From Gammaproteobacteria bacterium (lineage in GTDB: Bacteria; Pseudomonadota; Gammaproteobacteria; Eutrophobiales; Eutrophobiaceae), in the NCBI GenBank assembly GCA_965205955.1, contig OZ242192.1:2376796-2440795 (forward strand): DNA of 64,000 nucleotides, given 5' to 3'. The position numbers and the translations under genes are program-made. Below are positions 22,801-43,675 of this stretch, piece after piece. The notes beneath the pieces are model-generated. The model did no database searches, was not told the DNA's origin, and saw nothing but the letters and a program-made list of their open reading frames with translations. Within the stretch, counting starts at the first letter, position 1. Every line of letters starts with the position of its first letter.

Positions 22801-22827
22801 ATGCCATAGGCCCGAACACACATTCCC

Positions 22828-27749: not shown

Positions 27750-27754
27750 GGCGT

Positions 27755-27892: not shown

Positions 27893-27951
27893 CTTTCTAT
27901 CTTTGGGTCGTTCTACTGCGAGTTCTTCAACATCGGATTCGTGGCGGGCAG

Positions 27952-28803
27952 TTATTTCGACTTGTCAGCCAGGGGACGCGGATTTTTCAAGCCTTTTTTC
28001 TCGTCGGATTTCAGTTTTCTCGCCACTTTCTTGACATCTTCTTCGGGAGGCAGTTTTTCCGGTTGAATGCCGCGCTCTATCAGGGTCTTCCTTACGCTTT
28101 CGTTACTGGTGATGTGCTCATCGGATATTTCCTTTTCGCTGTGCATACGGTTTTTATCGACGTTGAATATCGTAATCTCCGTGGCAAAGTCTTTCGCCTT
28201 GAGAATGATGGTCGGGGCAAAATCCGCCAAAGCCCGGTTTTTCGGAACCTGCCATTTGTCTTTCATCTGTTCGGTGGTGTAACCGAACAATGCCTTGTCG
28301 CCTTTGGAGCGGATAATGCCGAAGTTTCGGTCGCTTCTCGTTTGTTCATAGATGACACCGGACAGCTCTTTTTCGGTGTCCGCCAGTTTTCGGCGAGCGG
28401 ACACCCTTTCGGCTTCCAGCATTTTCTGTTGGATAATCTCGAACTTTCTGGTCTGAGTGGCAAAGTAGGTTTGGGCTAAGGCGATTTCTTCCTTGCGCGG
28501 GTCGCCGTTTTGGGCGATGAGGTAGCAGGCGTAGCGGGTGAGCATGATGTCGGCCACTTCCCGTTGGCTGCCGGAGCCCAGGGAGACCATTTTGCTGGCG
28601 TCAACGAAATGGTCGGAAATTGTATGATTTGAGACCTCACAGGCGATTTTGGCTTTGTTGGCAACCTGTAAGAAGTTTCGCCAGTCTGTATAGCCCAGCA
28701 GACGCTGAAGGTCGCGGGCGAGCCAGAATTCAACACCGTTTTCGGTTTGGTTGGCGTGGGATTCAAAGTCTTTGGTGAGGGATTGTATGATTTCGGTTTT
28801 CAT
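27952..28803 (-). CDS. dinD: DNA-damage-inducible protein D (DinD/KilAC-domain family)
   Basis: VEFWLARDLQRLLGYTDWRNFLQVANKAKIACEVSNHTISDHFVD...LGSGSQREV...LTRYACYLIAQNGDP matches the E. coli DinD pattern. Confidence 0.7.
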   Translation of the reverse strand: MKTEIIQSLTKDFESHANQTENGVEFWLARDLQRLLGYTDWRNFLQVANKAKIACEVSNHTISDHFVDASKMVSLGSGSQREVADIMLTRYACYLIAQNGDPRKEEIALAQTYFATQTRKFEIIQQKMLEAERVSARRKLADTEKELSGVIYEQTRSDRNFGIIRSKGDKALFGYTTEQMKDKWQVPKNRALADFAPTIILKAKDFATEITIFNVDKNRMHSEKEISDEHITSNESVRKTLIERGIQPEKLPPEEDVKKVARKLKSDEKKGLKNPRPLADKSK

Positions 28804-28966
28804 TTTGGGGTTCCGATGGTTAAATGAGAATTGTGTCCGTGAATGGTTGTTATTTTACATTATAGGGGGTGGGTTCCCAAAACTGCAGTTTCGAGGTGGT
28901 AGACTTCGCCCTTATCAGAGGGTTCGACAGGTATGGTATCTTTACAAGTGGTGAGCAATCAAGAAT

Positions 28967-30280
28967 ATGATGAATAGCAACAAGGGAGGAAAAATGCGTG
29001 CCTTGCAGGATACATTTGGTCTTTTGGCAGACAAATTACTTTTGATGGAAGGAAATCCTAGCGCTTCTTGGGAAAGAAGTGCGGCAGACCTGATTCCACA
29101 GTTAATTCATATTCTTATCCAAGAGAAGTTCCCAGAGAATAGGAAGACAAAGCCACCTTTGATTTTTTCCGCGATTTCGGAGGATGAGAAAATTTTCCAT
29201 CCTTTCCGAAAACTTAAATTTCAGCTCATTCATAGTGAGTCGTTCACTATTCGCTCAGATAAAAAATTACATGTGGACCAAAAACTCGCCATTTTCACTA
29301 TCCCTATGCTGTATTCAGTTCCTGAATTTTCCCATCAATTGTCACCACGCACCCAAAAAAATCTTTCAGATTCTCCAAATCAGGATCTTGAAACTTCTGA
29401 CCTGTTGCGTTTTGAACATCCTATTGATCCAAGTGAAGTAAAGGAGGTTGCCATTGAGTTTACGGTACAAGGACATCTGGGGGGTGGCTTTTGCACATTC
29501 ATTTATGAAAATCCTTTTGATGAAAATCCACACAAAAAACTTACTCTGAACGAATGGTTGGAACAACCCGTTCTATCGGTAAACGGGCATATGTTCACAA
29601 TAGAAGAAATTATCAAGGAAGTGAGAAACAAAATCGCAGTACATCGGTCTGCTCCAGAAAGCATTAACAAGAAATCATTTATTTACAATACGAGATACAT
29701 TAACGCTTGCGGGGCTTATTGGTCTTATTTTATTTTCTTCTGTGCGCTCCATATCATCACTATAATTCAACAAAAGATAAAAACTGAAATGCGACTCGAT
29801 ATTGATGATAATTTTGCAAAAATTGCTGAATCGAAAAGACCCGATCTAACCACTTTTGGATGGGAAACTAAAGATTGGGGGGGGATAGAATCTTATCTTG
29901 TTCTTTCTGATAATGTTGAATTTATCGCCAATGAGGATATGTCAAAAAACACAACCAAGATATCGTTTTTCTCTTTCAGATTAGAGAGTCAAATGGGACT
30001 ACAGGTTTACTCCATCCCTAGCGTGTTTTTTAGTTTGAAAGCGCAAAAAGAAAAGGAAAGCATAGATGAAGAGAATTGTTTATATTTTAATTTGAAGGAA
30101 AAGAAATGTGGTTTTGGTCTGCATTTCAGAACCACTGCCGATGCGTGGTGTGAATTCGTCAGGGATGAAAAGAATATATTTACGGCAAGGCTTGTCACGT
30201 TCACCGATTATCCCATAAAGGGGAGTATATTCTATAATGACGTTAAAAATACCATGCGCATATTATTTAGCTTTTTGTAA
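28967..30280 (+). CDS. hypothetical protein, 437 aa, AT-rich, with no recognisable motif; the only plus-strand gene in the R-M island
   Basis: Long intact ORF in a roughly 33% GC segment (28.8-31.7 kb), convergent with the DUF3644 gene. No Walker, nuclease or HTH motif was recognised by eye. Confidence 0.45.
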   Translation: MMNSNKGGKMRALQDTFGLLADKLLLMEGNPSASWERSAADLIPQLIHILIQEKFPENRKTKPPLIFSAISEDEKIFHPFRKLKFQLIHSESFTIRSDKKLHVDQKLAIFTIPMLYSVPEFSHQLSPRTQKNLSDSPNQDLETSDLLRFEHPIDPSEVKEVAIEFTVQGHLGGGFCTFIYENPFDENPHKKLTLNEWLEQPVLSVNGHMFTIEEIIKEVRNKIAVHRSAPESINKKSFIYNTRYINACGAYWSYFIFFCALHIITIIQQKIKTEMRLDIDDNFAKIAESKRPDLTTFGWETKDWGGIESYLVLSDNVEFIANEDMSKNTTKISFFSFRLESQMGLQVYSIPSVFFSLKAQKEKESIDEENCLYFNLKEKKCGFGLHFRTTADAWCEFVRDEKNIFTARLVTFTDYPIKGSIFYNDVKNTMRILFSFL

Positions 30281-30782
30281 AATCTAATCAAGGGAATGCT
30301 GCACGAGTTGTCATACCGCAATGAAAATGTCATATTGATAACGTATCATCTTCTGCCCTTCGTTGCTCCATTGAAGTTGTTGACGTGTCGCTATCCACTT
30401 CAACCCACCGCACCTCATGGCCACCATGAGAGATATGCAGATTGCTATCCAACCATTCACGTATTTCCTATCGTTATGGTATCCGGCACAGGGGTGAGAA
30501 ACAGTCGTTCAATTCGTCGCCGCTTCTGTGCCTTCATAGTCGCAAAAACTCCGCGTGGATGAGTCCTGATAGCAGCCTCCTTTATCGTCATGTTCTTCTC
30601 CATAACACATTCGCAGATTTCAACACGCTTCATTTCTGCTATACTTACATTCTGTCCTCTTGTGGTATTCCATGCTTCATATTGAAGCACAACTAAGGGG
30701 GCTTTTTCACGTTGTCTTAATACGACATTTTCATTGTGGTATGACAGTTAACTACATAATTCCCAAATATTTTGTCATGATG

Positions 30783-31754
30783 CTAAGTATATTCTGATCT
30801 ATTGTTTTCACAGTGATTTTTCACGAACGTTAACCATGAATGATACCAGTACCATGTTTTGGCAACTTTTGTTCCAAATCCTTTTGATGGATTTTTTGCA
30901 TTTTCTTTTTGCCATAATTTCGTATGTTGATGTATTTTGAATTTGTTAAATCCATTTCTTTGCATTTCTTTGCAAATTTCACCTGGCAAATATTTCATCT
31001 TTTCCTTCTCTATGACATATTCCTTTTTAAGCCCTTTTGCTATATCAGAATCTGGCGAAATGAACTCAATCACTCTATCCGCTTGTCCTTTTCGATTAGC
31101 CGTTCTTAAGACAAATAAAACTCTGTATGAAAACCTACTATCATTGAAATATCCCTCCGACAAACCTTGATCAAAATCTTGAATATAAGAAGAGATATTT
31201 TGGGGCAAATCTTTGTAATCACGTAAGTCAGCGACTTGACCTTCGCTCAGAGAAGAAAATTGTAGGCTAAAGGACAGGTGTTTTTCGATGCCATCTTTCT
31301 TTGGAAATAATTTTTTAAGATATGTATTGTAATTCAAACAACAGGATTGAAAACGAGCATTTAAAAAATCATCGATTCTTGTTGTCATTCTATGTTCTAT
31401 TTCGTGTCTTAGCCCAATTAAAAATTTTAAATTTAATGTCGTAATTTTGTCAATTGGAGATTTTTCACTATCCAAGCATTTCTCCAATTCCCAGTATTTA
31501 TAGGCATTTTTTTTTGTAGTGGAAAATTTTCTCCGCCTTCCATTTATTTTAAAATATTTGTATTCTATATTCTTGTCATGATAATAGGCATGTAGCAAAT
31601 AAGTCCAAGCAATAATTGAAAGAACGATGAATGACTCTGATTTAAATTGCATATTTGGGTTGTTGAATATTTGAACGGCCGCCAGCATGCCCTCTTTTGA
31701 CTTGCGAAGCTGTTCATTCTTTATAGAGCCAAATTTTCTCGTTCTGCTAGCCAT
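30783..31754 (-). CDS. DUF3644-like protein, commonly found next to hsdS
   Basis: The N-terminus MLAAVQIFNNPNMQFKSESFIVLSIIAWTYLLHAYY fits the DUF3644 N-terminal pattern. The gene overlaps the hsdS stop by 8 bp. Confidence 0.5.
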   Translation of the reverse strand: MASRTRKFGSIKNEQLRKSKEGMLAAVQIFNNPNMQFKSESFIVLSIIAWTYLLHAYYHDKNIEYKYFKINGRRRKFSTTKKNAYKYWELEKCLDSEKSPIDKITTLNLKFLIGLRHEIEHRMTTRIDDFLNARFQSCCLNYNTYLKKLFPKKDGIEKHLSFSLQFSSLSEGQVADLRDYKDLPQNISSYIQDFDQGLSEGYFNDSRFSYRVLFVLRTANRKGQADRVIEFISPDSDIAKGLKKEYVIEKEKMKYLPGEICKEMQRNGFNKFKIHQHTKLWQKENAKNPSKGFGTKVAKTWYWYHSWLTFVKNHCENNRSEYT

Positions 31755-32961
31755 GATATGAAAATGGACTTATTCTCGCTTTTCCACTCATCAACTTCGG
31801 CAACAAAATATCGCGCAGTTTTTTGAGCGTGCGGATTTGAGATTTATTCTTCCGATTTTTATCAAAAACCGATTCTACAGTATCTTGAAATTTATAAACT
31901 AATTCATGCGGATACTTGGGAAAATCAATCGATACTAAATTAGTCTGATTTATTTTCGGTTGTACTGCCCCAGTAATGTATCTCTCAATATTTAATTTCA
32001 AAAGAAAGTGCCAGATAAAAAAGTTATCGTAAGGTTTTTTTGCTTTAAGCACATGGGTATGATTATTCACCCAAAACTTTCCACTAGTATATTGTAAAAC
32101 AGGATACCCTTCACCTGCCTTAACCGTCCCATCTTCGGCCATTAGAATGTATTCGCCTTCGAAAATATAGTCGTTTATGTAATCCATAACTTGAGCAGCT
32201 CCGTAGTATGGATACAATGAATCTCCATCCTTCATTTTTTGCCTTTCTATTTTGGAAAGCGGGATTCTTTTGCTGTCAAAAATCTCTACCACATCCCCTA
32301 GCTTTCCAAACTCCCACCCTTCATTCGCATCTTCCACAAACCACTTGCGAAACAATGCCTGTGCCATATCTTCAAGTGTTTTGTTCTGGCGGTGGAGCAG
32401 CTCTATTTTGTCGTCCAGCGATGATAACACTTCGGCAATGGCTTTTTGTTCGGGAAGTGGGGGGAGAAAAAATTTGTAATCTTTAATTGTTTTTGGTGAT
32501 GTGTGCTTTATTGATGTTCCACTTGCTGCGCCAACTATAAACCAGTGATATTCACCAGTACGCATTAGCCAATAAATAAAATTTCTATCAACCTCTTTTG
32601 ATTCAAATTGTAATAACCCTATCCGCTGATTGTGTAAATACATTTCATCGTTTTTATTATTTTTGGGAACTTTTGCTGAAAAACCAAGAGTGTCTCCTTG
32701 TTTGCTCAAATCAGTCATTGTTACAATAACATCACCTTCTTTCAGAATATAATCTTGTGGAATTTCACCTCTAAAATATTTTAACTTTGATGATTTGAAT
32801 CCTCCACCTATATGAAAATTTCCAGGTGTAACCAAAATATTGTTGTTTGTTTCATCTGTAATATATTTCCCCTTGAAAGCATAGCCGTGTTTTATATCAA
32901 CTAAATCCCCCAACCTAACCTCGCGCCACCCGTGCCGTTCTTTTTGCTCCATCCCGCTCAT
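31747..32961 (-). CDS. hsdS: type I restriction-modification specificity subunit HsdS, with two target-recognition domains
   Basis: Conserved central and C-terminal coiled-coil LPPLPEQKAIAEVLSSLDDKIELLHRQNKTLEDMAQALFRKWF, with two TRD-like halves; 404 aa. Confidence 0.85.
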   Translation of the reverse strand: MSGMEQKERHGWREVRLGDLVDIKHGYAFKGKYITDETNNNILVTPGNFHIGGGFKSSKLKYFRGEIPQDYILKEGDVIVTMTDLSKQGDTLGFSAKVPKNNKNDEMYLHNQRIGLLQFESKEVDRNFIYWLMRTGEYHWFIVGAASGTSIKHTSPKTIKDYKFFLPPLPEQKAIAEVLSSLDDKIELLHRQNKTLEDMAQALFRKWFVEDANEGWEFGKLGDVVEIFDSKRIPLSKIERQKMKDGDSLYPYYGAAQVMDYINDYIFEGEYILMAEDGTVKAGEGYPVLQYTSGKFWVNNHTHVLKAKKPYDNFFIWHFLLKLNIERYITGAVQPKINQTNLVSIDFPKYPHELVYKFQDTVESVFDKNRKNKSQIRTLKKLRDILLPKLMSGKARISPFSYHG

Positions 32962-33284
32962 TGCTCCGAATATATCTGCTCTTTCGTCAACAGTGTTTTC
33001 GCTTTCTCTTCGATGTGCCGTCTCATCGGCGGGTAATCTACAAAGTTGAACACCTGCACATCCACCTTGTATGGCAACGAACTCTCATCAAACAAAGTCC
33101 ACAAACGGTCGGTGGTCGCTCCATCGATGTCGCCGTAAAGCACCAAGTCAATATCGGAATAACTTTTGTAGTTTCCCGTTGCCCTTGAGCCGAACAAGGA
33201 TGCTTTTTCAATGCCGGGGCAATGTTCGCGGAGAATTTTTGCGATACCGCCAATTTGCCGTGCGCTCAATCCATGCGTGGACAT
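32958..33284 (-). CDS. mntA: nucleotidyltransferase (MNT-domain antitoxin of a HEPN/MNT pair)
   Basis: GSRATGNYKSYSDIDLVLYGD carries the GS...D.D polymerase-beta NTase motif; 108 aa. Confidence 0.8.
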   Translation of the reverse strand: MSTHGLSARQIGGIAKILREHCPGIEKASLFGSRATGNYKSYSDIDLVLYGDIDGATTDRLWTLFDESSLPYKVDVQVFNFVDYPPMRRHIEEKAKTLLTKEQIYSEQ

Positions 33285-33288
33285 TGTC

Positions 33289-33702
33289 TCAGAACTGCTC
33301 TCCTAAAACTTCGTAAAGTTCTCCGAAACATGCAAGGTATCTTTTGCTGATCTGCTCTAACGCCTCCTCAAATTTTTTGAAGTCGTAGGTGTGGCTCATT
33401 TTATTACGCACATCCAACGCCGTCATCCAGCCCTCGCCGTCGTGTATGAGATTTGCGGCAATCGCCTCTTTGATAATGGCGCGGGGAGTAACCTGCCCAA
33501 ACACAACATTGTTGTATTCCAGATAGTCCTTTGCCGCCTTCCATGCAAGTTCCATACAGTATTCAAAGCGTTGGATCATGCCCTCTTTTTCCAACTGTGT
33601 CATAGACCCATCACTGTATTTTTCGTTGGCCTCTTGTAGAAGAGTGTATGCTCTACTGAAATTGTTAAAGCGATATTTCCAGCGCGGTTTTTCTTCGCTC
33701 AT
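33289..33702 (-). CDS. hepT: HEPN-domain nucleotidyltransferase substrate-binding protein (HepT-like toxin, HI0074 family)
   Basis: MSEEKPRWKYRFNNFSRAYTLLQEANEKY...RFEYCMELAWKAAKDYLEY...ALDVRNKMSHTYD is the HEPN Rx4-6H-like region. The gene lies 4 bp upstream of mntA. Confidence 0.75.
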   Translation of the reverse strand: MSEEKPRWKYRFNNFSRAYTLLQEANEKYSDGSMTQLEKEGMIQRFEYCMELAWKAAKDYLEYNNVVFGQVTPRAIIKEAIAANLIHDGEGWMTALDVRNKMSHTYDFKKFEEALEQISKRYLACFGELYEVLGEQF

Positions 33703-34231
33703 GTTCTGTTCTCCAGTCGTTAATGTCGGTAATCTGTAAATACATTCGCCGCTCACCGGCGCGAATAGAACGAACCCGTTCCAGAAGTTCCTTGAAATAA
33801 TCCCTACCAAAGACCCGCGTACCCTGCTTGAGCCGTTGGTCATTCATGGCAAAGCCTTCGATGATATATTCTTTCAAAACCTGAGTCGCCCAGATGCGAA
33901 ATTGTGTGGCACGCCTGGAGTTGACCCGATAGCCAACAGCAATGATGGCGTCGAGATTGTAGAACTTCGTTTTGTAACGCTTTCCATCTCCGGCAGTAAG
34001 TTCCAAAATGGAACTTACTGATTTTTCCGGCAATTCACCACTCTTAAAGATGTTTCCGAGATGCTTGGTTATGGCGGGCCTTTGAACCCCGAACAATCGC
34101 GCAATATTTTCCTGCGTCAGCCACAATGTCTCATCTTGTAGCGTAACCTCGAGCCGCACCTCACCGTGAGGCGTGGTGTAAAGGATAAAATCGGCATTGC
34201 CGGAGGACGGCGATTTATTTTTCATACTCAA
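33665..34231 (-). pseudogene. rhuM: virulence protein RhuM family (Fic/DOC-like), 3'-truncated at the hepT-mntA insertion
   Basis: LYTTPHGEVRLEVTLQDETLWLTQENIARLFGVQRPAITKHLGNIFKSGELPE...GYRVNSRRATQFRIWATQVLKEYIIEGFAMNDQRL...RRMYLQITDI matches the first roughly 180 aa of the roughly 330-aa RhuM proteins. It then diverges (NDWRTEHERRKTALEISL*) and overlaps the hepT start. Confidence 0.65.
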
Positions 34232-35891
34232 TTTTGCCCAGGTTCTCCAAGATCCGCTTGTTCAACTCCGCCTCTTCTTTTATCTGCCCTTCAAATTCCG
34301 CTTTGAGTGCGGTAAATCTCTCTTCAAAGTCAAAATCATCCTCGGTTTCCGCCAGCCCCACATAGCGCCCCGGACTCAGCACATAGTCCAACTCTGCGAC
34401 CTTTGCCGTCTTGACCGAGGCGCAAAAGCCGGGGATGTCTTGATATGGGATGCCCTCACCTTCTTTTCCTCTCTCAGAGGGAGAGGAAGGTTGGTGATCT
34501 TTTCCTTTCTCAGGGGAAGGTTGATGATCTTTTCCTCTCCCTTTGGGAGAGGCTAGGTGAGGGTCCCTCCTCCACTGGTGGTAGGTGTTGACAACCCTGG
34601 CTATATCTTCATCTGAAAACTCCCGGGTGCGGCGGTTGATCAAATGCCCCAACTCGCCCGCGTCTATGAACAGGATCTCATCCTGGCGTTTCCGGTCGCC
34701 GTTGTAGCCGTGCCGTTTGTTGGAGACAAACCACAGGCAGGCGGGGATTTGCGTGTTCAGGAACAGTTTTGCCGGCAGATTGACAACGCAGTCCACAATG
34801 CCGGCATCGATGATGTTTTTGCGGATGACGTCTTCGTTGGATGATTTGGAGGTGAGCGAGCCTTTTGACAGCACGAAACCGGCCACGCCTTTGGGCGAGA
34901 GGTGGTGTATGAAGTGCTGCACCCAGGCAAAGTTGGCGTTGCCGGTTGGCGGAATGCCGTATTTCCATCGGCTGTCGCCTTCTAATTGTTTGCCGCTCCA
35001 GTCGCTGTCGTTGAAGGGCGGGTTGGCGAGGATGAAATCGGCTTTCAAGTCGGGATGGGCGTTGTTCAGGAATGAGCCTTCGTTGTTCCATTTCACCTGC
35101 CCGCCGTCTATCTGGCGAATGGCCAGGTTCATCCGGCAGAGGCGGTAGGTGGTCTGGTTGCTCTCCTGTCCGTAGATGGAGATGTTGTCGATGTTGCCCT
35201 GGTGCTGTTTGACGAATTTCTCACTCATCACGAACATGCCGCCGCTGCCGCAGCAGGGGTCGAACACCCGGCCCTTGTACGGCTCTATCATTTCCACCAG
35301 CAGTTTTACAATCGAGCCCGGGGTGTAGAACTGGCCGCCTTTTTTGCCTTCGGTGAGGGCGAACTGGCCGAGAAAATATTCATAGACTTTGCCGAGCAGG
35401 TCTCTCGATTTCGCGGCTTCATCGCCGAGGGCGATGTTGCCGACCAGGTCGATCAACTCGCCAAGCGTTGCGGATGCGACGTTCGGCCTGGAGTATACTT
35501 TCGGCAGAATGCCTTTCAGGGTGTTGTTCTCTCTTTCTATGGCTTCCATGGATTCGTCTAAAATCTTGCCGATGGTTTCCTGTCTCGCTTGTGCTTTGAT
35601 GTGGCTCCATCTTGCGTTCGGCGGCACCCAGAAAACGTTTTCCGCTCTGTATTCGTCCGGGTCTTCGGCGTCGGCGTGTTGATATTCCCCTTCGCCGGCG
35701 GTGAGTCTGGCGTGCAGGGTTTCAAAGGAGTCGGAGATGTATTTGAGGAATACCAGGCCGAGCACAACGTGTTTGTATTCCGCTGCGTCTATGTTGTTGC
35801 GCAGCTTGTCCGCGGCTTTGAATAGCTGGTTTTCAAAATTGCCGGCTTTTTCGGCGTGGTTTTCGGTCGTGGTCTTGCTGTCGGTCAACAT
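34215..35891 (-). CDS. hsdM: type I restriction-modification DNA methyltransferase subunit HsdM (N6-adenine), with a low-complexity in-frame insertion
   Basis: HsdM N-domain AADKLRNNIDAAEYKHVVLGLVFLKYISD; SAM motif FDPCCGSGGMF; catalytic NPPFN; 558 aa. Inserted SPKGRGKDHQPSPEKGKDHQPSSPSERGKEGEG at 34458-34560. Confidence 0.9.
   Translation of the reverse strand: MLTDSKTTTENHAEKAGNFENQLFKAADKLRNNIDAAEYKHVVLGLVFLKYISDSFETLHARLTAGEGEYQHADAEDPDEYRAENVFWVPPNARWSHIKAQARQETIGKILDESMEAIERENNTLKGILPKVYSRPNVASATLGELIDLVGNIALGDEAAKSRDLLGKVYEYFLGQFALTEGKKGGQFYTPGSIVKLLVEMIEPYKGRVFDPCCGSGGMFVMSEKFVKQHQGNIDNISIYGQESNQTTYRLCRMNLAIRQIDGGQVKWNNEGSFLNNAHPDLKADFILANPPFNDSDWSGKQLEGDSRWKYGIPPTGNANFAWVQHFIHHLSPKGVAGFVLSKGSLTSKSSNEDVIRKNIIDAGIVDCVVNLPAKLFLNTQIPACLWFVSNKRHGYNGDRKRQDEILFIDAGELGHLINRRTREFSDEDIARVVNTYHQWRRDPHLASPKGRGKDHQPSPEKGKDHQPSSPSERGKEGEGIPYQDIPGFCASVKTAKVAELDYVLSPGRYVGLAETEDDFDFEERFTALKAEFEGQIKEEAELNKRILENLGKIEYEK
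34458..34560. repeat. three tandem roughly 36-bp in-frame repeats inside hsdM built from the CCTCTCCC-N3-GGGAGAGG hairpin element
   Basis: cctctctc-aga-gggagagg (34468-34486); cctttctc-agg-ggaagg, degenerate (34504-34520); cctctccc-ttt-gggagagg (34534-34552). The same hairpin family flanks the DUF559 insert in hsdR. Confidence 0.7.
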
Positions 35892-35899
35892 GGTTTCTC

Positions 35900-36175
35900 C
35901 AAAATGAGTGCCCTCAGGGGAAAGGCTTTATAGTAGCGTATTATGCTTGCCGGGTGGCAGGGTTAAAATTCACCGGGGCGCTTTTGAGAGGCTTTTTCTA
36001 TTTGTTTGCTGTGCAGCAATCAAACTTTTCCGGGTCGGATCCTATGCCGCACAAGGCCGGTCAATCATTTTGCCAGCCTGGCGGGGGGAGCAGCATTGTC
36101 GCCGTAGCGCACTATCTGTTTTTATTGCAGGACCTGCCGGCGTCAATATCAATGTATTGCCGGCATACTCTATCT
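35900..36175 (+). pseudogene. degenerate duplicate of the tauE promoter and 5' coding region, with an internal roughly 60-bp deletion
   Basis: 35911-36175 aligns with 42316-42640: ggggaaaggctttatagtagcgtattatg...gcaatcaaac..ttccggg..ggat..tatgc...ggcgggggg...cactatctgtttttattgcagg. ORF 35954..36211 reads QSNFSGSDPMPH...GGGSSIVAVAHYLFLLQDLP; TauE reads QSNTSGADFMLH...GGGIIIVPALHYLFLLQGFP. Confidence 0.6.
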
Positions 36176-36224
36176 ATGCGTACCTTCCCCGGTGTTTGTG
36201 ATTATCGGTGAGTGCCGGGTATGG

Positions 36225-38081
36225 TCAGGCGGCGCGGGCTTCCAATAGTTGGCGGCTGAATGAGTTGTTGTCGGAAGTGGTCATTACCAGATCCTCCTGT
36301 GCCCGCGTCATGCCTACGTAGAGTAAGCGGGCGTCTTCTTCCACCCTATCCTCCTTGTCTCCCATATAGCCGACGCCGACAATAATGACCCGTGAGAACT
36401 CCAGTCCCTTGCTGCTGTGCAGCGTTATCAGAGGTACCCGGTCTTCCGCCGGATTATACGCGCTTTTGCTTTTTTTGTCTTTGAGTTGCAAACAGGGAAT
36501 GCCGGCGTTTTCTACTGCACGATGCAATTTGTCGCCCTGATAGTGGCTCAAGTACAGTACCGCCATATCCGCCCAGGCGATCTTGTCTTCATGCCAGCGT
36601 TGTAAACAACTTACAGTGTAATCCAGTTCTTCCGTGAAATTGCCCACTCGCCGTATTTCCGGGTCGGGGCCGCGATTGCCCGCCGCTTCCGGCGCAATCA
36701 GCGGGATATGGTCATCATCCGCGTTTTGCGGTTTGAGATAGTGTGCCGCGAAACGGTAGGCAAAGCGCAATATCTCGCGCGTGTTGCGGTAATTCAGCCG
36801 TAATATGGTGGTGCGCCCCGTGGCTTTAATGCCTACGCTGGCCAGGCTGAAACCCAATCCGGTGCGGGGTTTGTAGATGGATTGCGCATCATCGTACAGC
36901 AGCAGCAATGAATCTGTTTCCGGGTCCACCATCTGCACCACCAGTTTAAGCCAACTCTCTTCAAAGTCGTGGCCTTCGTCAATCATCAGCGCGCCGTATT
37001 GCGCCCGCGGGATCTGGCCTTGATCGACGGCATGGATAACGGTTTCCACTAACTTTTCCACATAAGATTTACCGAATGCCGGCGGGGCCACATGATAGGC
37101 CCTTAACTGCTCTGCGCACCAGTCGTGAAAGTGATATACCTGCACCTGCTGGTCTATACCCTTGGCTTCGATGAACGTGCGCAGCTTTGCCGCCAGCGTG
37201 ATGTTAAAACACAGAACCAGTATGGGCTTTTGCATCAGGGCAGCGAGGTACTGACAGCGATAGCCGAGTATCAGGGTCTTGCCGGAGCCCGCCACTCCGT
37301 GAATGACGCGGTGGCCTTCGCCCAGACTGCGCGCCAGTTGCTCCTGCTGGATGTCCATGATTTTGATGATGTCCGGCAGGGCTTCTGTGATGTCGGTGTC
37401 GTCGTCGGTTGCGGCGAACAGGCTCTCTTGCCTGCCGGTCACGATGCGTATTTCCGGGAATAGATACCAGCGTATGCGGTCAATCTGCGGCAGGGTCAAT
37501 GTGCCGCCAAACCGGTAGGTGAACATGTTCCAGAGTTTTTCCTGGAAGGCTTCCGCATCCGCATCCTTGCCGATGTCGTCCTGGTACAGCATCAGGTGAT
37601 CCGGCAGCAGGATTTCTCTCTCCGCATCCGGTGCGGCTCTGTGCATGCGTTGACGGCTAATGTTGGTAAAGACCACGCCGCAACCCCAGGGCATAATCAG
37701 CTTGCCCCGGTGTGCGCCACCCGCCTGCTGCAACAGGGGGTCGCCGGACAGGGTATTGACTACACGGTATTGATACTGCCGTGCCTGCTCCAGTGGGTGG
37801 GCCTCGGTTACCAGCCCCTTTGCAGTCAGTATTTCTGCGGTTTTGGGTGTAAATTTTTTGATGGTTTCCATCTTCCAGTCCTTTACCTCCAGCAGCAACA
37901 GTCCCCGTGACGGGTGCAGGATAATAAAGTCGGGATAACGGCGCTTTTTGCCGACCGGGATGTCGTACCAGATCAGGTAATCATCTTCCAGAAACCGCTC
38001 CAAACGACGGGCCAGGCGTTTTTCGCCGGCCGTCATGCGCGCCAGGGTTTGGCGGTTCAGGGCAGGGATGATCTCGGCCAC
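36225..38081 (-). CDS. NERD-domain nuclease fused to an SF1 (UvrD-like) DNA helicase; Nhi-like candidate defence protein
   Basis: N-terminal NERD: YLIWYDIPVGKKRRYPDFIILHPSRGLLLLEVKDW. Helicase: VIHGVAGSGKTLILGYRCQYL (Walker A), LMIDEGHDF, and C-terminal motifs; 618 aa. Confidence 0.75.
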   Translation of the reverse strand: MAEIIPALNRQTLARMTAGEKRLARRLERFLEDDYLIWYDIPVGKKRRYPDFIILHPSRGLLLLEVKDWKMETIKKFTPKTAEILTAKGLVTEAHPLEQARQYQYRVVNTLSGDPLLQQAGGAHRGKLIMPWGCGVVFTNISRQRMHRAAPDAEREILLPDHLMLYQDDIGKDADAEAFQEKLWNMFTYRFGGTLTLPQIDRIRWYLFPEIRIVTGRQESLFAATDDDTDITEALPDIIKIMDIQQEQLARSLGEGHRVIHGVAGSGKTLILGYRCQYLAALMQKPILVLCFNITLAAKLRTFIEAKGIDQQVQVYHFHDWCAEQLRAYHVAPPAFGKSYVEKLVETVIHAVDQGQIPRAQYGALMIDEGHDFEESWLKLVVQMVDPETDSLLLLYDDAQSIYKPRTGLGFSLASVGIKATGRTTILRLNYRNTREILRFAYRFAAHYLKPQNADDDHIPLIAPEAAGNRGPDPEIRRVGNFTEELDYTVSCLQRWHEDKIAWADMAVLYLSHYQGDKLHRAVENAGIPCLQLKDKKSKSAYNPAEDRVPLITLHSSKGLEFSRVIIVGVGYMGDKEDRVEEDARLLYVGMTRAQEDLVMTTSDNNSFSRQLLEARAA

Positions 38082-38168
38082 AGGGATACCGCCCGGCTCA
38101 GGCGCAAGCGGCGGGCGGCGCCGCCGGAATGCGTGGTTGTTCGGGCAGGCGTTGAGGCATGTTTCGCA

Positions 38169-39389
38169 TCAGCGGGCGCTTTGGGGAAAGGGCACCGCAC
38201 TTACTTTACTGATAAACTTATCAAAGGTTTTGCCTTTTAATCCCGTGAGGTGGTATGCCTCCCGGTAAAAGAGCCTGCCTTCGCCGACGGCCCTTCCTAT
38301 GGCGGCGCCGAATGGGTGCCCAATACGCACATTTTGGGTGTTCCAGAAATTCCCCCCGGAGCTCCCTCTATTCTGCTCTGCAATCTCTTTTCGTTTCCAT
38401 CTGTTATAGAAAGTGAAGAAAGAGTCGAGATTAATCAGGCCAACATCAAGCATGCGGCGGGCTGCAACTATGGTGCTGACCTTAAAATGACCGGCAACCT
38501 TGCCGTATTGCTCCGTGAGATTGGATGCGTTACTCAGAAACTCTCGGAGATCTTCACTCGGTACCAGGAACTCTGCCGCCACCTGATCGCAGAATTTCTC
38601 GGTAGCATTTTCGGTTTGTCGAAGTCGCTTGAATTTCGAGATGCCGGCAGCGCCAACGAAAATGTGTGCCAGCTCGTGGCTTAGCGTGAACATCTGCGCC
38701 GCTCTGTAATCGGCCCCATTGACGAAGATCAGCGGGGCATAGTCATCAACAAGAGCAAAGCCCTGAAACTCTTCACGGTCCAGTTTTCTATGGGTGTTAT
38801 TCCCCACCACGCCGTTAAACATAACCAGGATGCCCGCATCCTCGACAATGTTTCTCAGACGACGAAGCGCATATTCCCAGGTCGGCTCTTGCGCCGCCCA
38901 GTTTTTTGCCAGACCGAGATGCTTTTTCATGGCCGTCGCAACTGCATCATGCTGCTGTTCAAGACTGGCAGAACCGACAAATGATATTGGCTCAACCCCG
39001 TCTTGCAGCAACTCTTCCCGCATCCATGCCTGTCTTCTTTGCATGGTATGCACCGTCTCCAACAGGTTGGGGCTGGGGCGCTGTCGCAAACGGCTGTCCC
39101 CGCTGCGAAAATCCGGAATGGGCAGCTGATCCAGGTCTTCCGGCGGCTCAGAGAGATACAAAAGTCCGAGGGGCGTGTAGGTTTTGTGGGCGAGTCTGTC
39201 AATCTGGGCGATACTGATTTTCCCGGTTTTCTCCCATTCCTCCACCCGCCCCGGCTCCACGCCGATCTTGCCGGCGAGTTCGGCGGCCTGGTAAGCAACA
39301 CGCTCCCTGGCCCAGCGCAGAACCTCCGGTTTTAGCATAATCTGTTGGCGTCTTCCGTTCATGGGGTACCTCCCGGAATCATTGTACAT
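38169..39389 (-). CDS. XRE-family HTH regulator fused to an ImmA/IrrE-family zinc metallopeptidase (DUF955)
   Basis: N-terminal HTH (LKPEVLRWARERVAYQAAELAGKIGV); HExxH FTLSHELAHIFVG; 406 aa. Confidence 0.7.
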   Translation of the reverse strand: MYNDSGRYPMNGRRQQIMLKPEVLRWARERVAYQAAELAGKIGVEPGRVEEWEKTGKISIAQIDRLAHKTYTPLGLLYLSEPPEDLDQLPIPDFRSGDSRLRQRPSPNLLETVHTMQRRQAWMREELLQDGVEPISFVGSASLEQQHDAVATAMKKHLGLAKNWAAQEPTWEYALRRLRNIVEDAGILVMFNGVVGNNTHRKLDREEFQGFALVDDYAPLIFVNGADYRAAQMFTLSHELAHIFVGAAGISKFKRLRQTENATEKFCDQVAAEFLVPSEDLREFLSNASNLTEQYGKVAGHFKVSTIVAARRMLDVGLINLDSFFTFYNRWKRKEIAEQNRGSSGGNFWNTQNVRIGHPFGAAIGRAVGEGRLFYREAYHLTGLKGKTFDKFISKVSAVPFPQSAR

Positions 39390-39429
39390 GTTCTTTAATT
39401 CGTTGTGTATGGGTCCATAATATATGGCG

Positions 39430-39640
39430 CTCGGGGTGGTTGACGAGCAGTGATGGTATAGGGGATATCAGGGCCAATGCGTGGTGTGGTCGTTGAATGT
39501 TGTAGATCACCAGCCGATCCGGCGAGTTTGCGGTTGAATAAGGTCGGTGATCATGACAGATCCTTGAACCACTGCTTGATCTTGAGTGCCATCAATCTGC
39601 GGCGTCCAGACAAGTAAGCAGGGTCTCAATAGAGTGTTGC
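39430..39640 (-). pseudogene. frameshifted C-terminal remnant of an IS481/IS3-type DDE (rve) transposase
   Basis: Minus-strand frames give ...TQDQAVVQGSVMITDLIQPQTRRIGW followed by LVIYNIQRPHHALALISPIPSLLVNHPE. The YN..RPH.AL...P motif is the conserved end of rve-domain transposases. No intact upstream catalytic region was seen. Confidence 0.4.
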
Positions 39641-40008
39641 GTGACGGAGTAGCGTTGCGTGGCCATCAGTGAAGCTCCTCTACGATCCGACCCAACCAGA
39701 CGTTAGGGACGTGAGGTAGTATTTCGTGTTTTGGAAGACGACGGAAGTGTCTTCCGTTTGGCTTCGCTCCTATTGCAGGACATCTCGACGCGCGGGGTCG
39801 CGCTGCTTTGAAAAGCGGCGTCTCCAGGGTTTCGGATTGGATGGATTTGTTTTTCGGCATGTCACGTTGTCTCCGGTATGGGGTCGTGGAATAAATCGAC
39901 ATAGCTTTGGGGCGATTTTAGTGCGGCGGAAAAATTTTGGCAAGGTGAAAAAATACGCCAAAATGCGCTATAATCAGAGATCGCTTTTTTTTAATGGAGG
40001 GAATTTCA

Positions 40009-40380
40009 ATGGGCGCTCATCAATCAGAGGACACCTGTTGTACGCTGGTGCCGTATTTCAGGATTCACGACGGTAAACTCGACGAGTTCAAATCGCTGTG
40101 CGCACGCTTTATCGAAAAAACGCGCAATGATGAAAAATGCCTGCACTATGCGTTCAGTTTCGACGGCAACGATGCGCATTGTCGCGAGGGCTATACGGAC
40201 GCTGACGCCATGCTGGCACATTTGGAAAGTGTCAGTGATCTGCTGGCGGAGGCCTTCAAAATCGCCAATGTCACGCGGGTGGAAATCCATGCTCCGCCGG
40301 CCGAAGTGGAAAAATTGCGCGAGCCGCTGGCCGATTTTCAGCCCCAATTTTATACGGTGGAATGCGGCTTCCGAGCCTGA
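40009..40380 (+). CDS. antibiotic-biosynthesis-monooxygenase (ABM/YgiN-like) domain protein
   Basis: GGAGGG Shine-Dalgarno at -8. The sequence CTLVPYFRIHDGKLDEFKSLCARFIEKTRNDEKCLHYAFSF...GYTDADAMLAHLESV has an ABM ferredoxin-like fold pattern. Confidence 0.55.
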   Translation: MGAHQSEDTCCTLVPYFRIHDGKLDEFKSLCARFIEKTRNDEKCLHYAFSFDGNDAHCREGYTDADAMLAHLESVSDLLAEAFKIANVTRVEIHAPPAEVEKLREPLADFQPQFYTVECGFRA

Positions 40381-40562
40381 TGCCGAAGGCGCGCACGAAA
40401 AGCGAAGGGTGGTTGCACCCGCTGTTTTTTTACCTTGCGTCAAAAAAACCGGAACATTGCGAGATGGTCTTGCCCCACGGGATGGCGCGATTCGTTAGAG
40501 GGCGGAATGTCGGGGCAAGTACATGGGTCTTGTTTACCCGCCCTCTGATCCCTCCAGGCGTT

Positions 40563-42023
40563 CTATTGGGCTGTTAGTATCACCTTGATGGAATTTATTA
40601 TTGCTTTGATGTAATCGCTGAATGCTTCCGCATGCTTTCCCCGGGCGAATTTTGCGCCTCCCCGTTTGGTGTATGCCTGGATATATTGCGGGTCGATTGC
40701 AATCGCCTTGCCGTAGTCTTCAATGGCTTCCGCATGCTTTTGCAAAGCGGATTTTGCAAGCCCGCGCTTGTTATATGCCCCCGCATCCCGGGGGTTGATT
40801 GCAATGGCCTTGCTGTAGTCTTCAATGGCTTCCTCATGCTTTTGCAAAAATGATTTTGCAAATCCACGGTTGTTGTATGCCCTCGCATCCTGGGGGGTGA
40901 TTTCCGTTGCTCTGGTGTAGTCCTCAATGGCTTCCGCATGCTTTTGCAAAGCGAATTTTGCAAGTCCACGGTTGTTGTATGAGTCTGCTTCCTGCGGATT
41001 GATTTCAATTGCCTTGTTGTAGTCTTCAATGGCTTCCGCATGCTTTTGCAAAAATGATTTTGTAAGTCCGCGAATGTGGTATGCCCGGGCATCCTGGGAG
41101 TTGATTTCAATTGCCTTGCTGTAGTCTTTAATGGCTTCCGCATGCTTTCCCAAAGTCGATTTTACAAGTCCGCTGATGTGGTATCCTGATTCATCCTCTG
41201 GATTGGTTTCACTTGCCTTGCCGTACCCTCTACGGACTTCCGCACGCTTTCCCGAAGCAGATTTTTCATTGCCCCGGTTGTGGTGTGCCTGGGTACCTTT
41301 CAGGGCGATTTCAATTGCTTTTTTGTAGTCTTCAATGGCTTCCTTAAAATTTTCCAAAGCAGATTTTGTGTCGGCCCGGCTGGTGTATGCCTGGATATAT
41401 TGCGGGTTGATTTCAATTGCCTTGCTGTAGTCTTCAATGGCTTCCGTATATTCTTCTAAAGAATATTTGGCATTGCCCCGGTCGTGGTATATCTGGGTAC
41501 CTTGCGGGTCTAATTCAATTGCCTTGTTATAGTCTTCAATGGCTTCCGCGTGATTTCCCAAATCAGATTTTGCATTGCCCCGGTTGTGGTATGACCGGGC
41601 ATCTTGCGGGTTTAATGCAATTGCCTGAGTATAGTCATCAATGGCTTCCGTATATCTTTCTAAATAATATCTGGCAACACCCCTGTACTTCAATTGCTTT
41701 ATTTTTATGATTCGCCTTGTTATTGCGCCAACTAAAAGGATGAGTATGATACAGCTCAATATTACCCGATTGGATTTTAAATACTGTATTATTGGTTGGA
41801 TGTAGCCCTTGCTTGCTTCCGGATGTTTTCCCAAATCAGATTTTGCATTGCCCTCATTATAGAGTACCCCGACATCTTGCCGGTTGTTTTCAGCCAGTGG
41901 CTGGACCGGTGAAATATTGAGTGCCGCTCCTCCCCCGAAAAACAGGATGATGACCAGGGCACATGGCAAACCTGACCGGGGGAAAACATACCTAATAGAA
42001 GAAAAAACCTCATTCATTCGCAT
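40563..42023 (-). CDS. tetratricopeptide-repeat protein with an N-terminal signal/TM segment; internal 102-bp DNA-level repeats
   Basis: More than 10 consecutive TPR units (...AYHIRGLTKSFLQKHAEAIEDYNKAIEINPQ...). The nucleotide repeats of gcttccgcatgcttttgcaaa... are nearly identical, which suggests recent intragenic expansion. Confidence 0.7.
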   Translation of the reverse strand: MRMNEVFSSIRYVFPRSGLPCALVIILFFGGGAALNISPVQPLAENNRQDVGVLYNEGNAKSDLGKHPEASKGYIQPIIQYLKSNRVILSCIILILLVGAITRRIIKIKQLKYRGVARYYLERYTEAIDDYTQAIALNPQDARSYHNRGNAKSDLGNHAEAIEDYNKAIELDPQGTQIYHDRGNAKYSLEEYTEAIEDYSKAIEINPQYIQAYTSRADTKSALENFKEAIEDYKKAIEIALKGTQAHHNRGNEKSASGKRAEVRRGYGKASETNPEDESGYHISGLVKSTLGKHAEAIKDYSKAIEINSQDARAYHIRGLTKSFLQKHAEAIEDYNKAIEINPQEADSYNNRGLAKFALQKHAEAIEDYTRATEITPQDARAYNNRGFAKSFLQKHEEAIEDYSKAIAINPRDAGAYNKRGLAKSALQKHAEAIEDYGKAIAIDPQYIQAYTKRGGAKFARGKHAEAFSDYIKAIINSIKVILTAQ

Positions 42024-42428
42024 ACCTGTAACTCTCCAAAGAAATAAATTGCCAAAAAAGACCGGGCGGTGCGGCGCGTTGTGATGGATGGCTACCAATG
42101 CCCAAGTATACAAGTTACCAAAAAATTCATAAATTGCAACAGTGAAGCAGGAATGTATTGCATTGGGAAGGAGAGGGATATCCGGCCGGGGACAACCTGT
42201 GTTCGACTGCGTCTATATTGCTGCAGAGCTTGTTTGCTATTTGCAACAACCGGTTTGCGCAATTGTCCGCTGTTGCGGAACGGCTTTTTCACGGGCTTGC
42301 TGTAGGTAAAAATGATTTCTCCCGGGGAAGGGCTTTATAGTAGCGTATTATGATTACAGGGTGGCAGCGTTGGAATTCCGGTCATTGTAACCCGCACTGC
42401 TTTTGGGGAGCCTTTTTTCTGTGACTTT

Positions 42429-43268
42429 GTGGTAAAGCAATCAAATACTTCCGGGGCGGATTTTATGCTGCATGAGGCTGACGCAATAATTTTACTGGCT
42501 TATCTTGTCACAGGGGCCTGTGCCGGAATGACGGGCGGGTTACTGGGGCTGGGCGGGGGGATCATCATTGTCCCTGCGCTGCATTATCTGTTTTTATTGC
42601 AGGGCTTTCCGCCGGCGATATTAATGCATATGGCGGTGACTACGTCGCTGTCTGCAATCGTGTTTACCGCGCTGGCATCGGCCTGGACGCATCACAGGAA
42701 AGGGGCGGTGCTGTGGCCTGTGGTGGCGGCGCTGACACCGGGTATAGTTGCCGGCGGCGTGATCGGCGCCTGGCTGGCCAATCACCTGTCCAGCGAGTAT
42801 TTGCGGATGGGTTTTGGTGTGTTTGCATTGTGTATTGCGCTGCAAACGGGGCTCGGCATCCATCCGGCGGCCACGATGTCATTGCCCCGGCGACCGGGTA
42901 TGATTGCGGCCGGCGGCGTAATCGGGACATGCTCCACTGTGCTGGGGATCGGCGGCGGAACGCTCACGATCCCGGCCCTGCTTTGGTGCAGTGTGGGGAT
43001 CAGAAATGCGATTGCGGTATCGGCGGCCTGCGGCATTCCCATTGCTATCGCCGGTTCGGTATCGATGATCGCCGCCGGACTGGATGAGACTGCATCACCG
43101 GAAAATACAATTGGTTATCTGTATTGGCCGGCTTCGGCTGTGATCATTATTGCGGCAATCATTTTTGCCCCGATGGGCGCGCGTTTGACGCATGTGCTGC
43201 CGATTTCTCTTGTCAGGAAGATTTTCGCAGTGGTATTGGCTATTGTCGGGATACGAATGCTGTTCTAA
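42429..43268 (+). CDS. sulfite exporter TauE/SafE (DUF81) family membrane protein
   Basis: Two internally repeated 4-TM halves with GGGIIIVPAL and GIGGGTLTIPALL motifs; 279 aa. Confidence 0.8.
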   Translation: MVKQSNTSGADFMLHEADAIILLAYLVTGACAGMTGGLLGLGGGIIIVPALHYLFLLQGFPPAILMHMAVTTSLSAIVFTALASAWTHHRKGAVLWPVVAALTPGIVAGGVIGAWLANHLSSEYLRMGFGVFALCIALQTGLGIHPAATMSLPRRPGMIAAGGVIGTCSTVLGIGGGTLTIPALLWCSVGIRNAIAVSAACGIPIAIAGSVSMIAAGLDETASPENTIGYLYWPASAVIIIAAIIFAPMGARLTHVLPISLVRKIFAVVLAIVGIRMLF

Positions 43269-43276
43269 TAGTCGGA

Positions 43277-43675
43277 ATGAATGGGTATTGGCCAATATAT
43301 TGCTTTGATATCGGCGACGCAGATTCTCATCAGCGGCAGCGGAAAACTCAAGGCAGATCGCTCGTCGATGAGCGCAAGTCTTTGTATTGCCACAACTGCA
43401 CGCAGTTAGTCTGCTTCAAGAATGAGGCGGCCGGTATCCACGGCCGGCACGAGCACGTGTGCACCAATCCGGCCGGGGTGGTGTATCGCATCGCATGCTA
43501 CAGCAATGCTCCCGGATGCAATGCAATTGGCGCCCCACAATCGGAATATACCTGGTTCACCGGGTATGAGTGGCAGATTGCGGTTTGTGTAGGGTGCGGC
43601 GAGCACCTGGGCTGGATGTTCGCCGGAGCAGATGTGTTTTTCGGACTGATCCGCGAGCGGCTGGTGGAGGATTAA
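43277..43675 (+). CDS. bacterial cereblon homologue (CULT domain, thalidomide-binding-domain-like)
   Basis: CHNC...HEHVCTNPAGVVYRIACYS...IGAPQSEYTWFTGYEWQIAVCVGCGEHLGWMF...FFGLIRERL is colinear with Magnetospirillum MsCI4 (CRQCG...HEHVVFNPAGMIFRVWCFS...WFKGYDWTIALCGQCGSHLGW...FFGLIKDRL). The CxxC...CxxC zinc site and the Trp cage are conserved. Confidence 0.7.
   Translation: MNGYWPIYCFDIGDADSHQRQRKTQGRSLVDERKSLYCHNCTQLVCFKNEAAGIHGRHEHVCTNPAGVVYRIACYSNAPGCNAIGAPQSEYTWFTGYEWQIAVCVGCGEHLGWMFAGADVFFGLIRERLVED

Follow-up and report, generated by a model that had tools for sequence, protein, structure and literature searches.

Two diverged copies of an hsdM|tauE junction in a gammaproteobacterial defence island

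The repeated hsdM|tauE junction

A 64,000-nucleotide (nt) stretch of gammaproteobacterial DNA (contig OZ242192.1, positions 2,376,796-2,440,795, forward strand; hereafter the window, whose positions are used for all copy coordinates) carries the same divergent gene junction twice. The repeated unit is the entire junction between hsdM, the methylase gene of a type I restriction-modification (R-M) system, and the permease gene tauE, and it comprises the hsdM 5' end, a common promoter region, and the tauE 5' end. In copy A, at 35745-36157 (413 bp), the hsdM 5' end is live, the promoter core lies at 35911-35971, and tauE is a stub. In copy B, at 42173-42629 (457 bp), the hsdM stub is dead, the promoter core lies at 42324-42378, and the tauE 5' end is live. 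The copies are collinear direct repeats, 67-87% identical depending on the part compared, and lie on either side of a 6,015-bp insert (36158-42172). Decay has been reciprocal in that copy A retains hsdM beside a dead tauE stub and copy B retains tauE beside a dead hsdM stub. The bracketed DNA is a mosaic and not one coherent element.

A repeat search of the window resolved the promoter and tauE parts into three blocks: 35917-35971/42324-42378 (87% identity, offset 6407), 35993-36057/42414-42478 (74%, offset 6421), and 36080-36157/42552-42629 (78%, offset 6472). When the tauE 5' region was compared with the window by blastn, copy A was the single extra place found (E = 1.4e-18 and 1.3e-12) with no third copy; tblastn likewise identified no further TauE-like sequence. 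The pairwise alignment of the two copies has gaps of 12 and 2 bp in the upstream part and of 1 and 50 bp in the coding part, the latter summing to 51 bp and so remaining in frame, with a mean column identity of 77%. No identical run exceeds 22 nt, and the one of that length is central in the repeat, not at its ends. A wider alignment extended the homology leftward into hsdM coding sequence, to 35745 in copy A and to 42173 in copy B, and a blastn comparison with the equivalent copies in the sister strain L004 gave a 342-nt alignment across this part (67% identity, E = 4e-26).

A first-pass annotation had reported that the tauE 5' end occurs twice at about 75% identity, one copy lying directly upstream of the hsdM start (35891), and its coordinates are right. 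The internal deletion that it placed in copy A is also present, at about 50 bp instead of 60. Aligning both tauE copies, as it had proposed, recovers the homology that it described and also the bracketing of a segment of about 6 kb; the repeat is larger than the tauE promoter and 5' end, since it reaches into hsdM and takes in the whole divergent junction.

The left part of copy A is the first 49 or so codons of the intact hsdM gene (35745-35891, minus strand). The corresponding stub in copy B (42173 to about 42300, minus strand) is dead, with a stop codon and frameshifts, and its translation, NRLLQIANKLCSNIDAVEH, may be compared with that of intact HsdM, ENQLFKAADKLRNNIDAAEYK. The copy A tauE stub (about 36030-36157, plus strand) represents the first 55 or so codons with an in-frame 51-bp deletion and no gene body downstream. 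Its open reading frame (ORF) has no Pfam match, and tblastn pairs it only with TauE residues 30-65. Divergence differs by part, with the hsdM halves about 67% identical, the tauE halves 74-78%, and the core 87%.

The 12-mer TAGCGTATTATG lies 124 nt 5' of the tauE ATG in copy B and 128 nt 5' of it in L005, a related locus that has no hsdM. From its occurrence at nearly the same distance in L005, the repeat core is native tauE upstream sequence and was not brought in by hsdM. Its position and conservation suggest that the core may serve as a bidirectional promoter. A scan with the sigma-70 consensus found promoter-like sites no more often than in shuffled sequence and none in the repeat cores. 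An Rfam search of 35700-42800 produced no match; thus, the conserved tauE 5' region is not a known riboswitch or leader.

The age of the repeat was considered through a three-way comparison of copy A, copy B, and L005 over 114 alignable tauE coding sites. Private changes numbered 18 in copy A, 8 in copy B, and 21 in L005. Differences between copies A and B are flat over the three codon positions (7/9/12) as compared to 11/5/24 between L005 and copy B, from which it follows that copy A has been unconstrained for all or most of the period after it parted from copy B. By the site counts, the depth of the separation of A and B would be roughly half that of the split from the L005 lineage. Four conspecific strains (the window together with L004, L008, and L011; 96-99% nucleotide identity) carry both copies at equal mutual divergence. 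As a result, the duplication event must be much older than the strain split.

The bracketed segment and its island

The first gene to the right of copy A encodes a NERD plus UvrD-type helicase of superfamily 1A (SF1A) (36225-38081, minus strand; Pfam NERD, UvrD-helicase, UvrD_C, and AAA_19). It has the same orientation as hsdM and lies 333 bp upstream of it, a spacer that is retained in all conspecific strains. The protein matches the PADLOC model PDLC01087 'NERD+UvrD' over its full length (E = 1.4e-169; residues 1-612 against model positions 1-553 of 559), with the NERD domain at residues 18-111 (Pfam, E = 9e-11), and its nearest NCBIfam models are UvrD, Rep, and PcrA. Next is a gene with a helix-turn-helix (HTH)-like amino terminus and a Peptidase_M78 domain of the ImmA/IrrE type (38169-39389, minus strand; PF06114, 5e-14), followed by an insertion sequence (IS) relic (39379-39714, minus strand), an ABM-domain gene (39994-40380, plus strand; Pfam ABM), and a TPR protein gene (40563-42113, minus strand; Pfam TPR_1, 8e-82) that is downstream of the copy B hsdM stub and on the same strand. 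The Pfam assignments of NERD and UvrD, Peptidase_M78, ABM, and TPR agree with the gene content given by the first-pass annotation.

Between 40593 and 41885, the TPR gene consists of 9-11 head-to-tail units of 102 bp that are 66-81% alike in DNA, which indicates that the gene may have arisen by amplification of a single 34-residue TPR unit.

The IS relic would correspond to the carboxy terminus of an rve/IS481-type transposase. It contains the peptide YNIQRPHHAL; support for the IS481-like assignment of the first-pass annotation is weak, being confined to tblastn matches with the carboxy termini of IS481/rve transposases (E of about 6e-3), with no Pfam match and no blastn match in plasmids. Part of the relic (39441-39714) is an indel relative to L016. 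This weak rve carboxy-terminal relic is the sole transposase trace in 18.5-46.6 kb. Among the larger ORFs of that region (about 100 aa and up), searches with Pfam, NCBIfam, and PADLOC identified no recombinase, in agreement with the earlier remark that no integrase remains. ARAGORN found no tRNA in the window. No short, near-identical att-like core is present at the ends of the 413- and 457-bp repeats, which are 67-87% identical.

The repeat and its insert occupy the right side of a larger island. In L015, a locus with a 67% TauE relative (region 1-3900), slt and tauE are divergent neighbors only 148 bp apart. L015 aligns to the window at 18739-20663, which covers slt and the proximal spacer, and again at 42514-43671, which covers tauE and the next gene. 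From the slt|tauE adjacency, window positions from about 20664 to 42430 (about 21.8 kb) are an insertion between two core genes. On the evidence of this alignment, slt appears as the ancestral divergent neighbor of tauE and L015 as a deep empty site. The left core flank in the window is slt itself, encoding a soluble lytic transglycosylase (18582-20567, minus strand; Pfam SLT and SLT_L), and the right core flank is the intact tauE gene encoding a TSUP/TauE-SafE permease (42465-43268, plus strand; PF01925 over residues 26-277, 2e-50). In L005-7, with a 73% TauE relative, tauE is beside petA and its other neighbor is an SDR gene equivalent to window 12818-13543; with such different neighbors, that lineage has been rearranged. 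TauE relatives are sparse when ranked by identity: 98% (P0001, 267 aa), 73%, 67%, and then 61% or less. A search of genome contigs with TauE gave only 42-43% relatives, and exact-protein look-ups of the window TauE (279-aa GTG form) and of the helicase returned no match. Many close relatives were found for HsdM.

To the left of copy A, the spacer is filled by a defence island centred on type I R-M (20664-35744, minus strand; Pfam, PADLOC, and TRF). A complete gene set is present, all of it left of copy A: hsdR (22828-26514; HSDR_N, SWI2_SNF2, and T1RH-like_C), hsdS (31747-32961; Methylase_S), and intact hsdM (34215-35891, minus strand; N6_Mtase, 2e-101, and HsdM_N), the 5' half of which is 93-96% identical to L010. 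The genes of this part include a RhuM fragment, an MNT/HEPN pair, hsdS, DUF3644, Bro-N, AAA_14/DUF4143, hsdR, and an AAA ATPase. Genes of the PDC-S01, PDC-S13, and PDC-S19 types (PADLOC) and the MNT/HEPN pair are embedded in the R-M operon.

Several additional features of the island and the window were observed. Between its amino-terminal domain and its motor domain, hsdR contains a DUF559/MTES_1575-type endonuclease domain. Just upstream of the AAA ATPase gene, where the island begins on the left, a 35-bp repeat occurs twice (20941-21013) and TRF identified a tandem array of 5.3 units of 106 bp with 95% matches (21036-21596); units related to this array region are also found in L016. An ORF of 437 aa (28967-30280) in the lowest-GC part of the island (guanine-cytosine (GC) fraction 0.35-0.41) has 85% nucleotide identity in L016 and no Pfam, NCBIfam, or PADLOC match. 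Outside of the island, genes for Cas9 (RuvC_III, HNH, Cas9_a) and Cas1 are located at 1744-6119, upstream of guaB/guaA. Four tandem ORFs of about 345 aa each at 52462-56906 (minus strand) have a common 18-mer at about 1.1-kb spacing and are probably tandem paralogues.

Related loci and recurrent break points

The spacing between copies A and B is 6.4 kb in the window, about 7.0 kb in L004, and about 10.3 kb in L008 and L011. In L004, 553 bp of extra sequence at about 38199 (L004 5183-5737) carries a gene for a PIN-like DUF4411 protein (PF14367, 5e-50). DUF4411 is the usual partner of the M78/HTH gene, and no DUF4411 gene is adjacent to it in the window. By this comparison, the window has lost the DUF4411 gene through a 553-bp deletion at about 38199, and the M78 ORF is left with an altered carboxy terminus. 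L008 and L011 are without 38190-39907, and hence without the M78 gene and the IS relic, and have instead a 5.3-kb AraC-amidase-TonB-receptor block (within the regions L008 1-7704 and L011 3858-9866). The bracketed DNA is therefore not present or absent as one unit, and independent events have changed its interior in different strains.

On either side of the 5.3-kb block lies a diverged copy of the ABM upstream region with about 45 codons of the gene. This nested duplication is 255 bp in length and has the same architecture as the junction repeat. In the window, where ABM is present in a single copy, the upstream region and the first eight or so codons match the L011 stub at 89 of 98 positions (91%) versus 61 of 92 (66%) for the intact L011 copy, and beyond about codon 8 the sequence is identical to the intact copy. 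Beyond that same point, the stub differs from the window by five synonymous and three non-synonymous changes (codon positions 1/2/6). By these comparisons, the single ABM copy of the window is a crossover chimera of the stub and intact copies, and the stub and the intact copy come from two diverged functional alleles. The two states of the ABM locus accordingly differ by one homologous crossover, either integration or loop-out, and not by replicative target duplication.

No empty hsdM|tauE site is present among the four conspecific strains, and a metagenome DNA scan with the 22-nt promoter core gave no match. The empty-site comparison suggested by the first-pass annotation thus failed at the level of strains and was rewarded only at greater depth, by the slt|tauE site of L015. 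It had also taken unrelated spacing of the two tauE-like segments in related genomes as a sign of two paralogous genes. Spacing does vary (6.4, about 7.0, and about 10.3 kb) and copy A is found without tauE in L010; the cause is island turnover; paralogy does not account for it, as copy A is in no case a full gene.

L010 and L016 place copy A within a genome of very different composition. Across both loci the flanks have a GC fraction of 0.61-0.64 and the island of 0.47-0.50; in L010, the flanks (0.61-0.63) contain AhpC, LpxD-like, and RecQ genes and the island is at 0.47. The L010 NERD-UvrD protein is 85% identical in amino acids to the window helicase and is encoded directly upstream of hsdM. 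L010 is homologous to copy A at 96% through the hsdM 5' end and 50 nt into the core, as far as 35960. The 98 nt of spacer that remain align to the last 55 or so nt of the copy A tauE stub, with a score of 28 as compared to 16.2 +/- 2.3 for shuffled sequences, none of which (0/500) reached it. Against copy B, this remnant scored 20, a value reached by 52 of 300 shuffles and thus not a significant match. L016 is a variant of the high-GC host of L010, and its island is collinear with the window from 39910 to 20884 at 85-93% identity. It carries the M78 gene and the helicase, its hsdM is cut to 55 codons, and hsdS and hsdR are gone.

Both loci have copy A and DNA from both of its sides without copy B, and L010 is without tauE. 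Since copy A moved with DNA on both sides, it was not an element end in that transfer. From these alignments, the tauE stub formed once and has since been exported, in the interior of a larger unit, to a genome of foreign composition.

A tandem duplication of 2.7 kb in L010 (8853-11517 and 13935-16643, 95.8% identity) covers the 3' half of the helicase gene, the spacer, and the hsdM 5' end. It brackets an insert of the hsdM 3' part, RhuM, and MNT/HEPN, leaving two hsdM genes in a row. More distant helicase homologues (L017 2568-7860; L012-L014 3041-7860) have 67-68% identity. In Sedimenticola they are located directly after a type I hsdR, and in Endoriftia after the gene for a PLD-DEAD helicase-Peptidase_S24 protein; both loci are near the same Peptidase_M1 and haem-binding-cofactor genes. 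The proposition that the helicase is a constant companion of type I R-M was rejected, as it is true in Sedimenticola but not in Endoriftia.

Further stubs are found within the bracketed segment. A third hsdM 5' stub of about 20 codons (39801-39860, minus strand) was identified when aligned with L010 and with the 5' region of the L009 hsdM, and is of the L009 allele type; its local alignment score is 111 as compared to 17.6 +/- 2.6 for shuffles, and L010 retains 47 codons of this stub. It is preceded by the last 15 or so codons of a Fic gene (39861-39906, minus strand) that is complete in L010 and L016. Position 39910 was considered as a true island boundary and discarded, as 39866-39906 is a cut Fic 3' end and the boundary is a truncation. 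In this locus family, gene-end repeats bracket at least four inserts, and three hsdM starts are present in the window alone. Serial turnover can thus be seen directly, in the third hsdM stub of another allele type inside the bracket and in the additional hsdM stub and the 2.7-kb duplication of L010.

The positions at which the stubs end recur. Three independent hsdM stubs from different alleles end within about 10 nt of each other at codons 46-49 (VLGL|VFL), at 35745-35754/42173 in the window, about 10164 in L016, and about 7857 in L010, each with a different downstream partner. Recurrent junction points within the window are at about 38190-38199 and at 39907-39910. Approximately 118 nt upstream of the helicase gene, the partner is M78 in the window, DUF4411 in L004, an ABM stub in L008 and L011, and an hsdM stub in L010. 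Among seven junctions (28 pairwise comparisons), no common motif was found beyond chance; the best repeats were the 10-mer AATGTATTGC, which occurs close to where copy A ends on the right and again 18-27 nt to the left of copy B, and a 9-mer around 38178 and 39903. It is rather unlikely that the recurrent breaks (hsdM codons 46-49, about 118 nt upstream of the helicase, and 39907-39910) reflect cassette exchange by an unrecognised sequence-directed process. If they did, the NERD-UvrD helicase or R-M-induced breaks might be involved, and the hsdM 5' end with its bidirectional promoter might act as a docking and expression module.

Origin of the repeat and comparison with known systems

All of the evidence indicates host recombination and not a recombinase encoded by an element. 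The explanation given the most weight, at about an even chance of being right, is that the junction repeat is a recombination scar left by serial turnover of type I R-M modules through host recombination. Copies A and B would be two versions of one junction in the island that fills the ancestral slt|tauE spacer, an island that would have recombined with its own diverged versions and been remodeled several times. On one side of each exchange, homology in hsd or in the flanking sequence would have been used, and on the other an illegitimate or short-homology join. The order of events can be proposed as follows. An early R-M module would have been placed directly against tauE and later reduced to the 49-codon hsdM stub of copy B, the promoter of which now faces the TPR gene. 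The present R-M module would then have been imported from a related lineage with an slt-R-M-tauE layout in which hsdM abutted tauE; with it would have come the promoter core and 55 tauE codons that make up copy A, joined downstream of the helicase gene. Each copy would have kept the gene that was still needed as its other half decayed neutrally. No recombinase of the island's own would be involved, and the repeats may still be substrates for homologous loop-out or re-integration.

The principal competitor is insertion in place. About 6 kb would have entered a resident junction, doubling about 0.45 kb of target, and the two copies, identical at birth, would have decayed neutrally and reciprocally, and hsdM may later have been replaced by another allele; the same product would result if a circle with a homologous patch integrated by a Campbell-type single crossover. 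The geometry is exactly that of the known R-M class (46-423 bp repeats, an insert under 20 kb, no mobility genes) and is simpler than import. The flat distribution of differences in the tauE stub also fits, as does the length of the A branch (16%), about twice that of the B branch (7%), which is expected if copy A was never again under selection. Even so, insertion in place is a possibility of modest weight, and import is preferred as about twice as probable. Import is favored because stub B ends at the recurrent hsdM break point, within 10 nt of two other independent stub breaks, suggesting the usual hsdM truncation and not a duplication edge; because the hsdM halves are the most diverged part, at only about 67% identity as compared to 74-87% elsewhere; because the mosaic interior holds the hsdM stub of another allele; and because the nested ABM case is demonstrably allelic and not duplicative. 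No empty site was found, which also counts against duplication in place. Serial turnover with import has its own difficulties. No genome was found with a single hsdM|tauE junction, nor one with the helicase-to-TPR block and stub B but without the R-M island. The flat distribution of tauE stub differences over codon positions would be expected equally from neutral decay of a duplicate formed in situ. The geometry is tidy, with both cut halves abutting the insert as expected from a single insertion with long target duplication, and import needs two events. Finally, the sampling covers one lineage and one recipient host.

Three other explanations were considered. A small tandem duplication of the junction, from hsdM codon 49 to tauE codon 55, may have come first and created a dead zone that was later filled by insertions. 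Short tandem duplication is a common mutation that would be harmless here with both genes keeping a promoter, and the interior is clearly the product of multiple events. Every insertion, however, must then have hit the novel joint exactly, as neither stub is split, and tandem repeats of 0.45 kb are unstable. Together with the divergence of the hsdM halves and the coincidence of break points, this makes the proposal improbable. Integration of an island into the tauE 5' end, with a replacement 5' end, attL/attR repeats, and an integrase lost later, was the origin put forward by the first-pass annotation. Direct repeats that include a gene end, defence cargo, the IS relic, and a permease gene intact on one side only are in its favor. 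The repeat, however, spans both divergent genes and its longest identical run is central instead of terminal. There is neither a recombinase across 20-46 kb nor a tRNA, copy A moves with DNA of both sides into another genome, and the interior varies between strains by independent events. With no att core and a mosaic in place of a cargo, this origin is very improbable. The alternative offered alongside it, an old duplication-mediated rearrangement, comes close to the evidence. Lastly, the variable A-B spacing among strains could recall two paralogous tauE genes of which one has decayed. This is the least credible explanation, hardly worth retaining, as copy A never extends beyond codon 55 or so in six of six loci, homology takes in the non-coding upstream region and neighboring hsdM, and tblastn located no further TauE-like sequence in the window.

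Some of these features are familiar from described systems. Integrative islands at tRNA, tmRNA, and other gene ends, including genomic islands and integrative and conjugative elements, rebuild the end of their target gene. Like these, the present direct repeats hold the end of a host gene that is intact on one side; unlike these, there is no recombinase, no short exact terminal core, and no coherent element, and the repeat covers two genes. Orphan arrays of Rhs systems and of systems for contact-dependent growth inhibition (CDI) contain stubs left by serial displacement. Insertion with long target duplication of restriction-modification genes was reportedly described by Nobusato et al. in 2000. 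Long direct repeats, with no mobility genes, are often found on both sides of R-M genes, and insertions with long target duplication at R-M loci have repeats of 46-423 bp and inserts of less than 20 kb (PMC2853133). The window resembles this class in its direct repeats (413/457 bp), its insert of under 20 kb (6,015 bp), the lack of an integrase or transposase, and an ordinary target sequence. It differs from the class as presented by Furuta, Abe, and Kobayashi (2010) in that the R and M genes are outside of the bracket and only hsdM stubs are inside. In addition, the copies are 67-87% identical here as compared to over 90% there, no empty-site genome accompanies them, and the evidence leans toward two allelic versions of a junction and not replicative duplication.

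Serial displacement that leaves orphan gene stubs is described for type VI secretion system (T6SS) effector-immunity arrays in Vibrio cholerae (PMC5361080). The T6SS, Rhs, and CDI arrays are similar to the present locus in that diverged incoming modules recombine at a conserved anchor and leave truncated homologous stubs in a row. They differ in that they hold 3' toxin tips with immunity genes, whereas the present system, which is type I R-M, has promoter-bearing 5' ends as its stubs (three of hsdM and those of tauE and ABM). Among described classes, insertion with long target duplication is the closest, and the closest process analogue is serial displacement with orphan stubs.

The helicase had been likened by the first-pass annotation to the anti-phage protein Nhi. 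Nhi (SERP2475) contains DUF2075 (PF09848), an SF1B Dda/Upf1-like helicase, and R-M methylase domains are among its frequent neighbors (bioRxiv 10.1101/776245). NERD (PF08378) is a member of the PD-(D/E)xK superfamily (bioRxiv 10.1101/2024.01.29.577857). Both proteins are therefore single polypeptides with an amino-terminal nuclease of that superfamily and an SF1 helicase, encoded among defence genes. The window protein, however, combines NERD with a UvrD/Rep-like SF1A helicase and has no match to PF09848, and the Nhi assignment was discarded. The island also resembles the R-M-embedded genes of Payne et al. (bioRxiv 10.1101/2024.01.29.577857), with PDC-S01, PDC-S13, and PDC-S19-type genes between hsdR, hsdS, and hsdM and the helicase upstream of hsdM; that study concerns gene content and not junction duplications.

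The repeated junction is a real finding that is informative on how islands are rebuilt and is ordinary in kind. It corrects three misreadings that annotation invites, namely that the locus is an integrative element, that its helicase is an Nhi homologue, and that the 6 kb form a coherent cargo. The locus may be regarded as a dated example of a defence island that has grown and been rebuilt without a recombinase of its own, in which the promoter-proximal stubs of hsdM (three times), tauE, and ABM record successive replacements. The stub of a permease gene in an unrelated high-GC genome marks the origin of the island found there, and such stubs could be applied more broadly to learn where defence islands came from and in which direction they were transferred.

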